A stretch of 64,000 nt of DNA, taken from NCBI GenBank assembly GCA_963790205.1, contig CAWBNQ010000001.1, positions 768,001-832,000 on the forward strand. Direction: 5' to 3'. Both the position numbers and the translations under genes were made by a program. How positions within the stretch are numbered: position 1 is the first letter of the stretch; every line of letters begins with the position of its first letter. Below the pieces are notes generated by a model. It made no database searches, had not been told where the DNA came from, and saw only the letters and a program-made list of their open reading frames with translations. This DNA comes from Nitrospirota bacterium (GTDB taxonomy: Bacteria; Nitrospirota; UBA9217). Of the stretch, positions 33,197 to 37,832 are shown in pieces.

Positions 33197-33225
33197 TTGA
33201 CAAAGAGAGTTAATTTTGATAAATC
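33197..33225 (+). promoter_or_regulatory. Sigma70-type promoter of the spe operon
   Basis: TTGACA-N17-TAAATC with an extended -10 TG. Confidence 0.6.
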
Positions 33226-33376
33226 ACACTTAACTTTAATGAGTGACGCGCCGTCTGAAGTAAGAGACGGATTGGATTCGGACGCTAGCCCTTCCGTGGG
33301 AACGGAAGGCGGTGCTTGCGGAGATCCCGACCCTGTCGGGAAGCTTGTGAAGCAGGCGGAGAAGGAGGTAAACAGG

Positions 33377-33805
33377 TTGCACGCGTTAGGAACCCACCTG
33401 TTGCTAGAATTGCGGGATTGCAACCGCAAAACCCTCGGTAATCTGGAGTTTGTACAGGAAACACTAAAAAATGCCGCACTTGAGGCAAAGGCGACGATTG
33501 TAGAAGTCGCTTTCCACGAGTTCAGCCCCTTTGGCATCAGCGGGATGGTGGTCATCGCCGAATCCCATCTTGCCATCCATACGTGGCCGGAATACGGCTA
33601 CGCCGCAGTCGATGTCTTCACCTGCGGGGACCTGATCGATCCCAGGGTCGCCGCAAATTACCTCATTGAAAAGTTCAAGTCCAAAGACCCCTCGATCATC
33701 GAGATCAAGAGGGGGATCCTCGGCAATAAAAAGCTTCCCCATAAGGCCTTACCAGGAGAGACGCTTCAGCATGATAGAGCCCAAGAGCTACAAGTGGTTC
33801 ATTGA
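33377..33805 (+). CDS. speD: S-adenosylmethionine decarboxylase proenzyme
   Basis: AAGGAGGT SD with TTG start; IAESHLAIHTWPE and DVFTCG motifs. Confidence 0.95.
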   Translation: MHALGTHLLLELRDCNRKTLGNLEFVQETLKNAALEAKATIVEVAFHEFSPFGISGMVVIAESHLAIHTWPEYGYAAVDVFTCGDLIDPRVAANYLIEKFKSKDPSIIEIKRGILGNKKLPHKALPGETLQHDRAQELQVVH

Positions 33806-34691
33806 GTATACGAGCCCCGAAGAGGGGCATTTGCACGGCATCCGCATGATCCACTATGCAAGCCAGACCAAGTACCAGCGGATGGAGATCATGGACAGTG
33901 GAAGCTATGGCCGGTGCCTCGTGTTGGACGGTAAGATGCAGTCCACCCTCACCGACGAATTCATCTACCATGAGGCGCTGGTGCATCCCGCGCTCCTCAC
34001 CCATCCGGACCCGAAACGGGTCTTTATCGTGGGCGGTGGCGAGGGGGCCACGCTCCGCGAGGTGCTCCGTCACAAGAGCGTGGAATACTGCATGATGGTG
34101 GACATCGACCAGGAAGTGGTCGAAAAGTCCAAGGAGTTCCTGCCTGAATGGCACCAGGGCGCTTTTGACGACCCGCGAACCGATCTGCGGTACATGGATG
34201 CGCGCAAGTATCTCGAAGAAACGACCGACACCTATGATGCCATAATCATTGATATTTCCGAGCCCGTTGAGGAAGGGCCTGCCTACCTCCTGTTCACGCG
34301 CGAGTTCTACGAGATCGTAAAAGAGCGTCTGAGCCCGGACGGGGTCATCTCCCTCCAGGCGGGGACCACGGCCCTGCATTCACTTTTGAACTTCACGGCC
34401 GTGGACAAGACCCTGAACGCCGTCTTCCCCGTGGTCGCCCCCTATGCCGTGTCCATTCCGTCCTTCGGCCTTCCCTGGGGCTTTACCCTGGCCTCGAAGA
34501 ACCTCGATCCACGGAAGTTCGCTCCCAAGGACCTGGACGCCATGATCAAGAAGAGGATCAAGGGCGAGAACCGGTACTACGACGGCATTACGAACCAGGG
34601 CATGTACATGCTGCCCAAGCATATTCGCAAGGCCTTAGCGGAAGAGACCAAGATCATAGAAGATAATGCGCCTCTCTTTACCTATCATTAA
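33771..34691 (+). CDS. speE: Polyamine aminopropyltransferase (spermidine synthase)
   Basis: LVLDG.MQ, DEFIYHEAL.HP and GGGEGATLRE motifs. Confidence 0.95.
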   Translation: MIEPKSYKWFIEYTSPEEGHLHGIRMIHYASQTKYQRMEIMDSGSYGRCLVLDGKMQSTLTDEFIYHEALVHPALLTHPDPKRVFIVGGGEGATLREVLRHKSVEYCMMVDIDQEVVEKSKEFLPEWHQGAFDDPRTDLRYMDARKYLEETTDTYDAIIIDISEPVEEGPAYLLFTREFYEIVKERLSPDGVISLQAGTTALHSLLNFTAVDKTLNAVFPVVAPYAVSIPSFGLPWGFTLASKNLDPRKFAPKDLDAMIKKRIKGENRYYDGITNQGMYMLPKHIRKALAEETKIIEDNAPLFTYH

Positions 34692-34757
34692 TGGCTGGGG
34701 GAAAAGTTCCCCGGAGGATTTTCCCGTCGCCGACGCTGATAGGATAATAAAAAAACG

Positions 34758-36242
34758 ATGAATCCTCCTCCCAACCGAATAGAGGACGAGCAGTTCCGCA
34801 CTCCCCTGTTCGACGCAATGGTCAACCTTGCCGAGAGTCGCAAGGTCTCCTTCCATACCCCCGGTCATAAGAGCGGCAAAGGCATTTCAACCCGGTTCCG
34901 AAAATTCGTGGGACCGCGCATTTTCTCCATCGACCTTACGACACTTGACGAGGTCGACTCGCTCCAGAACCCCACGGGAGTCATCAAGGAAGCGCAGGAG
35001 CTTGCCGCCAGGTCCGCAGGCGCGGACCGCTCGTACTTTTTAGTGAACGGCACCACCGTGGGAAACCACGCCATGGTGGCCTCCACGACCGGGCCCGGCG
35101 ATAAAGTGATCATCGCCCGTAACTGCCACCGCTCCGTGCTTACCGGTCTTATCATGAGCGGAGCCCAGCCGATCTTCTTTCAGCCGGCCTTTGACCGGGA
35201 CCTCAAGCTCACCCTGAACGTCACCTTCGCGGCCGCGAAACAGGCCATTGACGCCAACCCCGGGGCGCGGGCGCTGCTTATCACGAGCCCGAACTACTAT
35301 GGCCTCTGCGCCGATATCGAGAAGATCATTCCCTATGCCCACGAGAAAGGCCTTATCGTGTTCGTGGACGAGGCGCACGGCCCTCACCTCAAGTTCAACC
35401 CCAAGCTGCCCATCTGCGCGCTCGAGGCAGGGGCCGACCTCTGTGTCCAGTCCACGCACAAGATCGTGGGCGGCATGACCCAGGCCTCCATGCTCCATGC
35501 AAAAGCCGAGCGGATCAATATCGACGATGTGACAAACACGCTTAAACTCCTGCAGACCACGAGCCCGTCCTATATCCTGATGGCATCCCTCGACCTGGCG
35601 CGCATGCAGATGGCCACGGAAGGCAAGAAACTCCTGAACCGGACTATCAAGCTTGCCGAGGAAGCCCGCGCGGAGATCAACAAGATCCCCGGCATCACCT
35701 GTTTTGGCAGGGAGCAGGCCAGGGGAGCGGGCATGGCGGACATGGACGTGACCAAGCTCACCATCACGGTCTCGGATATGGGGCTTTCGGGTTACCATGT
35801 GTCCCATGTGCTGAACACCCGCTTCGGCATCCAGGTGGAGATGGCGGACCCTTTCCACGTGCTCGTGATCGTATCGATCGGAGACCGCCAGGACGACCTG
35901 AACCTGCTTGTGGAGTCTCTCCGCGTGATCGCCATGGAGACCGGGCTCCAGGGCGCGCTCCTGCCGCTCGATAAGGTCCATCCGCCGATGCTCCAGAACC
36001 GTTTTGCCATGACGCCCCGCAAGGCCTTCTATTCCGACAGCGAGCTTGTGAACGTGAACGACGCCGCGGGCAGGGTCTCGACGGAGATCGTGACCGTTTA
36101 TCCCCCCGGCATCCCGCTCCTTGTCCCCGGAGAAGAGATTTCCCGCGACGCCATCGACTACCTCCAGAACATGGCAGGTCTCGGCGCGATCATCGACGGC
36201 ATGAACGAGAACAACACCCTCGTGCGCGTGGCAAAGGCATAA
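34758..36242 (+). CDS. speA: Orn/Lys/Arg decarboxylase (Bacillus SpeA-like)
   Basis: FHTPGHK, LVNGTT, DEAHG, QSTHK, TTSPSY and YPPGIP motifs; substrate inferred from operon context. Confidence 0.85.
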   Translation: MNPPPNRIEDEQFRTPLFDAMVNLAESRKVSFHTPGHKSGKGISTRFRKFVGPRIFSIDLTTLDEVDSLQNPTGVIKEAQELAARSAGADRSYFLVNGTTVGNHAMVASTTGPGDKVIIARNCHRSVLTGLIMSGAQPIFFQPAFDRDLKLTLNVTFAAAKQAIDANPGARALLITSPNYYGLCADIEKIIPYAHEKGLIVFVDEAHGPHLKFNPKLPICALEAGADLCVQSTHKIVGGMTQASMLHAKAERINIDDVTNTLKLLQTTSPSYILMASLDLARMQMATEGKKLLNRTIKLAEEARAEINKIPGITCFGREQARGAGMADMDVTKLTITVSDMGLSGYHVSHVLNTRFGIQVEMADPFHVLVIVSIGDRQDDLNLLVESLRVIAMETGLQGALLPLDKVHPPMLQNRFAMTPRKAFYSDSELVNVNDAAGRVSTEIVTVYPPGIPLLVPGEEISRDAIDYLQNMAGLGAIIDGMNENNTLVRVAKA

Positions 36243-36399
36243 TCCTTAAATCCCTTGGACACGCACAAGACCGGATTTTCATCGATTATCTTAGGGCCTA
36301 AAGCCTTGTACGAGTCATCTCGATAAAAGTATCACTGTCGTTTTGTTGCCAAGCAAGTCTGCGTAATCTTCTATGTTAAAAAGCAAGTCTTTCTTTTGG

Positions 36400-36625
36400 C
36401 ATAAACGCATCTCTTTTATTAAGGAGCGATTTATAGCGAACGCAATCTTCAAACCCAATCTTCTATGAGCAGACAGTCTTCGTTGATGAAGAAAACGCTG
36501 CATTGCCTTGATTAATTATGAAGGCGTGGGTTCGTAGTCTGTGGAAGCACAGACGGCATCTTTCGATCCGCTGTAGATTACGCAAGACGATACCCACGGT
36601 GAAACACGGGTTTAAGATCGGCTAT
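36400..36625 (-). ncRNA. Putative bridge/seek RNA of the IS110-family element
   Basis: Stem / internal loop / GAAA-capped stem at 36525-36598. Loop strands match the two target flanks; a 9-nt match to the donor end lies at 36459-36467. RNA boundaries approximate. Confidence 0.75.
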
Positions 36626-36638
36626 AAATATCGGTTTT

Positions 36639-37709
36639 TTATTGAACAACCGCCGTAGTGTATTCTTGTTGGTTCTTTAAAACGTACCGGACGCGGTTTA
36701 ACAGCTTCCGGGCGATCCGAACGATAGCTTTGGTCTTTGTCATGTGTTTGCACAGCTCATTGAACGCCATCATTAGGGCAGGGTCTTTTCGCACCGCCGT
36801 CCAAGCGCTTTCGATCAAGACGAAGCGAAGCTGGGCGTTCCGCCTGCCGGTCATGCCGGTTTTAAGGTCCTTTTCCCCGCTGGAATCGGTATCGGGGATA
36901 AGGCCAACGTAGCTGCAGAGTTTGTCGAGCGTCTTGAAACGATTGATGTCATACAGCTCCGTCAAGAGCATCATCGCGGTCAAGGTACTGATTCCCGGCA
37001 CGGTCTTAAGTATCCGGACATTGTTCCGATAGTCGTCCGAATTGGCCAGGGCGCGGATCGCCCGGTTCATCTCGGCAATGATATGCCGAAGATGCTTAAG
37101 CTCGTCTAAGTGTATCTTGAGTGATAGGTTGCCGCTGGCCCGCTCCATTTGTACGGACTCGATCCAATTGATGAAGCGTTTGGACCAGTAACCGTTGATG
37201 AAATCGTCCGGTATGTCGATACCGTAAAAGCTCAGGATCGACTTGATCTGGTTCTTGCAGCGAGTTTGTTTCCTTACCATGCTATTTCGAGTACGAAGGA
37301 GGCTGCGGTCCTCGACTTTTGGTCGCGTAGGGACATAGATCCCTTCGATGTCGCCGTTTCTGAGGCTCCGGGCTAGCTTGCGGCAGTCCACCCGGTCGGT
37401 CTTGCCTGCGCGCTCTTTGTCTTTTGTGGGCACATCCGCCGGATTGACCACGAGACATTGTATGCCTCGCTCCTGAAGCCGGTCATGTATCCAGAAACCG
37501 GAGTAACCGGCCTCATAGACCGACTTATAGGCTGCACCCGGAAAATTGCGTTTGAGATAGTTTACCAGCACCCCGACCTCCGGAGGTTGTGAAAAGGTCT
37601 TATGCTCGAACTGATCGGTAAAAATACTGATGCTCCAACTTTTCTTATGAATGTCCATACCGACATAAATTTGTTGACCAGTGAAATCGAGTCTGCTAAC
37701 GTTATTCAT
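36639..37709 (-). CDS. IS110-family DEDD recombinase/transposase
   Basis: VGMDIHK, YEAG and KTDRVDC (RuvC-like DEDD); TVPGI and SYVGLIPDTDSSG (Tnp_20, catalytic Ser region). Confidence 0.95.
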   Translation of the reverse strand: MNNVSRLDFTGQQIYVGMDIHKKSWSISIFTDQFEHKTFSQPPEVGVLVNYLKRNFPGAAYKSVYEAGYSGFWIHDRLQERGIQCLVVNPADVPTKDKERAGKTDRVDCRKLARSLRNGDIEGIYVPTRPKVEDRSLLRTRNSMVRKQTRCKNQIKSILSFYGIDIPDDFINGYWSKRFINWIESVQMERASGNLSLKIHLDELKHLRHIIAEMNRAIRALANSDDYRNNVRILKTVPGISTLTAMMLLTELYDINRFKTLDKLCSYVGLIPDTDSSGEKDLKTGMTGRRNAQLRFVLIESAWTAVRKDPALMMAFNELCKHMTKTKAIVRIARKLLNRVRYVLKNQQEYTTAVVQ

Positions 37710-37832
37710 GGCAAGTCTCCTTTTGGTGTATTTTGGTCCGGGATAGACCTAATATACCTTAAGTCAGACTTGCCTTTTTAATCATAAGGTCTGTGTGCTC
37801 TGCGGATCAACTTATACCGTAAGGAGCTCTTC

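Follow-up and report, generated by a model that had tools for sequence, protein, structure and literature searches.

The locus studied here raises the question of how an IS110-family element selects its insertion site, and whether the non-coding DNA at its 3' end encodes an RNA that reads the target, the element's own ends, or both. The sequence analysed, referred to below as the window, is a 64,000-nt stretch of a Nitrospirota genome. Our reading, to which we give a probability of about 0.8, is that the window carries one of seven copies of an IS1111-type insertion sequence whose 3' non-coding end encodes a two-loop bridge (seek) RNA, steering a DEDD recombinase to an intergenic repeat via base pairing. 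Considering that the kind of system and its architecture were already published in 2024 (Durrant 2024; Siddiquee 2024), the gain is a good test case and not a new mechanism. Durrant et al. (PMC11208160) give predicted RNAs for 93% of catalogued IS1111 elements, and this clade may already be among those predictions. Through this locus, a family under genome-editing development gains a probably recently mobile and cleanly readable example of an IS1111-type recombinase with its guide RNA, together with 55 guide settings found in nature.

The protein encoded by the element (356 aa) matches PF01548 (N-terminal DEDD) and PF02371 (C-terminal, with the catalytic serine), the two domains that place a protein in the IS110 superfamily, and scores 210 bits against NCBIfam NF033542 (IS110-family RNA-guided transposase, cut-off 140). 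Across 55 aligned proteins D19, E66, D108 and G278 are each present in 55/55, D105 in 51/55 (N in 4) and S277 in 52/55 (T in 3). Matches to solved structures were limited to IS621 (E 5e-6) and ISCro4 (E 8e-7), both weak, and the best match in the plasmid database shares 34% identity with the recombinase. Downstream of the gene lie 269 nt of non-coding element sequence versus about 80 nt upstream, the long downstream region being a hallmark of IS1111. The two sub-terminal repeats match at 18 bases with two 1-nt gaps, and are therefore imperfect (the usual IS1111 length is 11-13 bp). They are inset by 7 bp on the left, core counted in, and 3 bp on the right, which is the spacing stated for IS1111 elements (PMC11187229), and there is no true target duplication; a core copy can be assigned to the left end in 24 of the 24 sites whose two copies differ. 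As far as sequence permits a judgement, the element has all the IS1111 features that can be checked, in agreement with the original prediction of an IS1111-type element with a guide RNA downstream of its gene.

Genome G000, to which the window belongs, holds seven copies with identical ends, six of them whole and with identical interiors. The seventh is broken mid-gene between contig C3 (1074430) and the start of contig C11 (C11:1), with a 3-nt overlap, and C3 continues past the break with 12.6 kb of unrelated sequence; the split reflects either assembly or rearrangement. Identical copies imply recent movement, and the element has probably been mobile recently. A search of 40 related genomes at E 1e-80 found the element in none of them, a wider draw of 400 genomes gave relatives in 9, and the viral contigs searched for the element yielded nothing useful. 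G000 also contains two further IS110-family elements, 24-27% identical to this recombinase and present in two copies each (C1:229726-230706, C1:496675-497655, C2:81259-82131, C5:25588-26460). The coordinates of all features are collected in Table 1.

Table 1. Features of the element, its predicted guide RNA and its insertion site (window coordinates).
Feature	Position	Strand	Evidence or remark
IS1111-type element interior	36370-37790		recombinase on minus strand; CT at 36368-36369 and 37791-37792
Core CT (AG on transposase strand), right-end junction copy	36368..36369	+	
Target half GCGTAAT beside right end	36361..36367	+	recognised by 5' strand of target loop
Target half GTGT beside left end	37793..37796	+	guide specifies GTGG
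Right donor half CATAGA	36370..36375	-	includes 3-bp terminal extension 36370-36372; matches donor-loop guide
Right sub-terminal inverted repeat	36373..36390	+	carries predicted -35 box TTGCTT (36386-36381, minus strand)
Left sub-terminal inverted repeat	37766..37785	-	predicted -10 box TATGAT at 37786-37781
7-bp left extension	37786..37792	-	core AG (37792-37791) + ACCTT
IS110-family DEDD recombinase, 356 aa, open frame	36639..37709	-	D19, E66, D105, D108, S277-G278
Leader hairpin, predicted to sequester the ribosome-binding site through to the start codon	37710..37774	-	z = -5.74
Predicted bridge/seek RNA, about 180 nt, ends approximate	36443..36620	-	z = -4.06, 0/200 shuffles
Basal stem closing the predicted RNA	about 36619-36608 with 36456-36444	-	duplex energies
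Target-binding hairpin (outer stem, internal loop, inner stem)	36525..36598	-	alignment covariation
Target-loop 5' guide GCGUAAU + core CU	36575..36583	-	follows flank
Target-loop 3' guide CCAC + core AG	36539..36544	-	follows flank
Target-loop handshake positions AC	36537..36538	-	equal first two left-end bases
Candidate second donor guide AAGG, complement of left-end 37789-37786	36506..36509	-	weak
Donor-loop inner stem GCAGC...GUCUGC, motif common to target loop	36469..36501	-	99.5% of cells paired, 41 sequences
Donor-loop 3' guide CAUAGA + core AG	36460..36467	-	co-changes with right end
Donor-loop handshake positions AU	36458..36459	-	after exchange would pair with two target bases beside core

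The strings on which the guide RNA had originally been proposed are present on the minus strand where they were placed (CGTGGGT 36598-36592, TCGT 36590-36587, TGCGTAATCT 36584-36575, CACAGA 36543-36538, ACGA 36535-36532, ACCCACG 36531-36525 and CATAGAAGA 36467-36459), and the flanks are as described there. When the whole minus-strand region was folded, none of 200 shuffles was as good (z = -3.87). The basal duplex, evaluated over 55 relatives, gave -16.6 kcal/mol with its own strands, -11.7 with swapped strands and -7.5 with shuffled ones. In an alignment of 41 sequences, the outer and inner stems of the target loop and the stem of the second loop are paired in 94.4% of 860 cells and show 68 two-sided changes versus 25.2 in shuffles, a control that ignores relatedness. 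The target-loop inner stem is paired in 99.5% of cells, its first pair being A-U in 20 sequences and G-C in 19. A search of Rfam returned no relevant family and one chance match (E 0.99).

The fold first proposed, with an open guide loop, stands in part: its inner stem is conserved and is the preferred fold in 39/55 relatives, but the open form is not the minimum of the naked RNA. For this copy it reaches -24.6 versus -28.2 kcal/mol for the minimum, with an ensemble probability of 0.0005, and the naked RNA is predicted to close its guide loop; we infer that the open form is held by the protein. RNAalifold preferred a rival hairpin in the target loop (GUCUG/CAGAC), which was dropped as the functional fold because it shows no extension while the inner stem covaries; this hairpin may form in the free RNA.

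Covariation between the loop and the flanks was assessed with relatives from two scans, which gave 63 loci from genomes and the best 80 of 200 from metagenomes; the named relatives at ≥55% identity are mostly Nitrospirota and Syntrophales-type genome bins. Among the 98 full-length loci at ≥55% identity (window included), 73 were parsed and 25 dropped (8 with a short flank, 6 without a right-end anchor, 5 without the target-loop motif, 3 without a left-end anchor and 3 without the loop motif). Loci L120 and L121, with a left end out of register, were also left out, so that 71 remained with 55 distinct guide sets and 27/98 were unscored. Guides were found via RNA motifs alone, and the best of three registers was allowed both in the data and in the null. 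With the 55 guide sets, the 5' loop strand agreed with the right flank at 6.20 of 7 positions versus 3.49 when shuffled, and the 3' loop strand with the left flank at 3.62 of 4 versus 1.50, with 0/10,000 permutations in each case. The signal breaks off abruptly, its extent being 7 nt on one side and 5 nt on the other. A 10-nt match to the flank had been noted in this copy: relatives agree with their flank over 7 nt and the 2-nt core, but not at the eighth position (0.29 versus 0.28 expected). The long-guide register is flexible by one nucleotide among relatives.

In 27 disjoint nearest pairs, at the positions where the two guides differ, the flanks match their own guide at 60/85 and 25/33 positions and the other's guide at 3 and 0. 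Such joint change of guide and flank between near-identical recombinases is, as read from these comparisons, natural reprogramming. The original prediction had placed both guides in a single target-binding loop and suggested homologues as its test; in these the loop strands do covary with the flanking targets, showing a loop whose 5' strand would read 7 nt plus core and whose 3' strand would read 4-5 nt plus core of the insertion site. As a separate observation, the target loop of many relatives (among them L070, L001, L079, L082, L085, L123, L133, L139 and L140) is longer by a single U, placed between the core-pairing bases and its inner stem; L095/L098 are one base short.

The second loop has the same inner-stem motif. 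This donor-loop stem is nearly invariant, so no covariation is seen there, and the evidence comes from its 3' guide. In its last 3 nt the guide is identical to the right end in 71/71 relatives, in three states (AGA 45, AAA 16, AGG 10), and the tree, built with members of this clade only, has 4 changes of guide and right end, all joint, four events being a small number. The proposed donor guide CAUAGAAG is thus real in the sense that end and guide agree throughout, and this agreement shows a 3' strand that would read the right end plus core. The second donor guide, left unplaced by the original prediction, is most likely AAGG and at best weak: an exact 5-nt complement of the left end occurs in 16/71 relatives, and 4 of 5 positions agree here. 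In 18 relatives this region is AAGAU though the left end stays ACCTT, and all six elements with a left end starting AT have GAU in it. Fold analysis found no separate outer stem for the donor loop, which in the model appears to be part of a multi-branch loop that the basal stem closes; the donor hairpin alone folds no better than shuffles (z = 0.53).

Next to the guides lie the handshake positions. Those of the target loop equal the left end in 70/71 relatives (AC/AC 64, AT/AT 6) and their own target in 1/55. A handshake that differs from its own target and matches the partner is the pattern favouring exchange in IS621 (PMC11208158). For the donor loop, the first base equals the target in 34/55 (0.62 versus 0.45; 10/10,000 permutations), a weak signal, and the second base gives none (0.16 versus 0.16).

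The bridge-RNA and seekRNA papers state different views of how the ends of IS1111 elements are recognised, a disagreement on which the donor-guide covariation bears. In a seek-RNA-only model, just the target hairpin (about 36600-36520) would guide, the protein would recognise the ends at the sub-terminal repeats, and the second loop would be a dispensable part of the precursor. We consider this unlikely for the present clade, even if it is the alternative that survives best. ISEc11 transposed better with an 82-nt RNA than with the long form (PMC11187229), target-loop-only RNA made up 90.4% of the RNA bound in CazIS110-1 (10.1101/2025.10.25.684509), and the 5' donor guide and the isolated donor hairpin are as weak here as just described; but the donor-loop 3' strand co-changes with the right end (71/71, 4 joint changes), the stem motif of that loop is nearly invariant, and both excision and full integration of CazIS110-1 required the full two-loop RNA (10.1101/2025.10.25.684509).

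For the two-loop RNA that we favour, expression would start from the circularised element. The joined ends are predicted to give a promoter, TTGCTT-17-TATGAT, and TTGCTT or TTGACT together with TATGAT occurs in 43/55 relatives, with the spacing kept in most. In the linear element, a promoter and terminator scan gave 2 promoter-like sites versus 2.1 expected and 0 terminators. Eight RNA runs were listed, with a best share of 0.07. Two runs contained contigs of relatives only, mostly 90-95% alike or less, across the gene and the 3' end alike, and no circle junction was seen in the contigs of these two runs; four further runs had 0 contigs over 36300-36700. That RNA of this element was not detected in the runs searched, and that single-stranded circles have been reported for IS621 (10.64898/2026.08.31.748434), would suit a scheme in which the pairing acts in single-stranded element DNA and not in RNA. 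This is very improbable, considering that the co-purifying nucleic acid of four tested IS1111 members came from the 3' non-coding region, that it was RNase-sensitive for ISEc11 and acted in trans (PMC11187229), that those members have the layout and the order of guides seen here, and that G-U pairs are present in the stems.

Between the promoter and the start codon lies a leader hairpin whose 3' arm covers the ribosome-binding site. It folds with z < -2 in 54/55 relatives, has two-sided changes at 7/9 pairs, and the 13 nt preceding the ATG are >60% paired in 55/55; the hairpin is predicted from these models to damp recombinase translation. The inner part of the left inverted repeat forms its 5' arm, which is shifted 5-6 nt inward in many relatives.

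The seven genomic copies all lie at TG[C/T/A]GTAAT-CT-G[T/C]G[G/T], within an intergenic repeat family, and not at unrelated sites, the finding that the original prediction had named as one that would speak against it. On the GCGTAAT side the guide matches 7/7 positions in five copies and 6/7 in two; on the left-end side it matches 3 or 4 of 4 in 7/7 copies. The target repeat consists of short tandem ATCTG(C/T)G units, with 22 pattern matches in the genome versus 1 and 0 in two Markov simulations. The family is mostly intergenic and REP-like, has AT-rich surroundings and often forms divergent pairs 30-50 nt apart (for example C1:606058/606087, C3:777893/777922 and C10:12103/12141). The genome still has empty guide targets, of which two are exact and ten near-exact. 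The ATCTG(C/T)G repeat family could be matched to no name or partner gene, and a link between it and GxxExxY genes was dropped, the three such genes having 0, 1 and 0 repeat words nearby. Least probable of the alternatives is that the matches are chance or passive flank copies and that the recombinase selects the repeat via protein contacts or DNA shape alone: ISPpu10 specificity is increased by a target stem-loop (10.64898/2026.03.19.712850), many relatives lie in palindromic repeats and all 7 copies here lie in repeats, but guides and flanks co-change between near-identical recombinases, a joint change that stops abruptly at 7 and 4-5 nt, and DNA shape may add to the guide match but cannot replace it.

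The copy in the window is flanked by a lysine/ornithine decarboxylase gene and a nucleoside transporter gene. Upstream (33197-36242, plus strand) there is a polyamine-type gene run that includes an Orn/Lys/Arg decarboxylase and, judged by eye, S-adenosylmethionine decarboxylase-like and spermidine synthase-like frames.

If the guide RNA acts as known systems do, the steps can be drawn from IS621 and ISEc11. The element would circularise, its joined ends forming the promoter that transcribes recombinase and RNA; the RNA would be released from this transcript by cleavage and associate with the recombinase; its target and donor loops would bring the target and the circle junction together at the core; and the CT-carrying strand, antisense to the recombinase gene, would be cut 3' of the core and exchanged. 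Recombinase translation is predicted to be kept at a low level by the leader hairpin. Since a short target-only RNA of ISEc11 was sufficient for transposition (PMC11187229), the donor loop need not be required.

The core itself proved shorter than first thought. A TCT/AGA core is not borne out, the core being the dinucleotide CT/AG: at the right junction the base after AG is A in 31, G in 18, T in 5 and C in 1 of 55 relatives, and it follows the guide, so that the core is AG (CT on the plus strand) and not AGA, and the TCT/AGA repeat consists of a 2-nt core and a third base that agrees by coincidence. The last A of CACAGA and the last A of CAUAGAAGA are handshake positions and not part of the core.

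With the core so defined, its inheritance could be followed at 87 distinct two-ended sites drawn from all loci, with anchors independent of the core letters. The core pairs (left/right) were AG/AG at 62 sites, AG/GG at 23, AG/AA at 1 and GG/GG at 1, with 0 reversed; wherever the cores are mismatched, AG is on the left and the target-type dinucleotide on the right, 24 to 0, with 9 of the 24 sites from one genome (G203). Of the 25 sites that are not AG/AG, 12 lie in a host repeat whose 7-8 bp palindrome is restored by the dinucleotide of the right junction and not by that of the left, which identifies the right-junction dinucleotide as the target's own; at sites without a palindrome the right end could be one base short. 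The G203 loci (L188-L203) comprise 15 matches to one relative (72% identity), and most of the copies that have both ends are inserted in a palindromic repeat of the GTCATTCC type, where the target core is GG.

In IS621 the top strand is cut 3' of CT (PMC11208158). Combined with one-way cores, a cut of this type implies that the 'top' strand here would be the one antisense to the gene, and that it alone would be inherited, which bears on single- versus double-strand transfer. Top-strand-only integration has been reported for CazIS110-1 (10.1101/2025.10.25.684509) and single-strand excision for IS621 (10.64898/2026.08.31.748434). The one-way cores fit single-strand transfer as in these two systems, but they would also fit biased repair, a possibility raised by Hiraizumi et al. 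(PMC11208158), or an unstaggered cut. Their novelty is limited, because they restate the known practice of giving the repeated bases to the left end.

Among the characterised elements, the present one resembles the IS1111 seekRNA elements ISEc11, ISPa11, ISKpn4 and ISPst6, as described by Siddiquee et al. (2024, PMC11187229), in its DEDD recombinase, GL-P----SG motif, long downstream non-coding region, sub-terminal repeats with 7-bp left and 3-bp right extensions and (here predicted) junction promoter, and also in the order of the guides, a top-strand complement 5' of a bottom-strand match, both tracking the target, in having repeat targets (as ISPa11 does) and in natural reprogramming among relatives. 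It differs from them in the length of the recombinase (356 aa versus 330-350), in its imperfect repeats with two 1-nt gaps, and in a donor guide that covaries with the right end, none being named in that report.

With the IS621 bridge RNA (PMC11208160, PMC11208158) it has in common two loops, a CT core, a target loop with 7 nt plus core on the 5' strand and a short guide plus core on the 3' strand, handshake dinucleotides (clear in the target loop, weak or none in the donor loop) and REP-like targets; the target loop has the IS621 layout when read on the strand antisense to the recombinase gene. Unlike in IS621, the RNA here is encoded downstream instead of upstream, the recombination site has the opposite orientation with respect to the gene, and the long donor guide is on the 3' strand, with a short or weak 5' donor guide. 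A multi-branch loop apparently contains the donor guides, an arrangement that Durrant et al. (PMC11208160) also describe in many members of IS1111. ISPpu9 (PMC12288879) likewise has AG at both ends, REP targets, seven copies and a structured leader, which inhibits recombinase translation in ISPpu9 and is predicted to do so here; a literature search for leader hairpins burying the ribosome-binding site in IS110/IS1111 elements gave nothing closer among the matches listed. ISPpu9 differs in belonging to the IS110 group without sub-terminal repeats, in having a long leader under antisense RNA control and, according to a section heading of that report, in circles that make no new promoter, unlike what is predicted here.

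By a modest degree of belief, we incline to a fuller reading. The downstream RNA of this clade would be a full bridge RNA in which one hairpin module occurs twice, the donor end is read by RNA and handshake bases are present; it would have the IS621 geometry on the opposite strand, so that the 'reversed guide order' of IS1111 would be a mere flip of the recombination site. The mismatched cores (24 to 0) would then record a cut 3' of CT on the gene-antisense strand and the inheritance of that strand alone, giving genomic support for single-strand transfer in an IS1111-type element.

Two variations of the RNA region among relatives deserve description. In loci L100, L106, L107, L109 and L110, the guide RNA and the right end are separated by an extra palindromic stretch of ~110 nt whose arms are of the GTGGATAACT type. 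Among 18 distant Bacteroidota relatives (35-39% identity), three have two tandem target-binding hairpins with different guides (L034:1516-1700, L035:1505-1700 and L033:2290-2470). Compared with the right flank, the second hairpin of L035 matches at 9/9 positions and the first at 7, and the two of L034 match at 7 and 6; such tandem hairpins may belong to RNAs with two targets, or may mark an intermediate of reprogramming through duplication.
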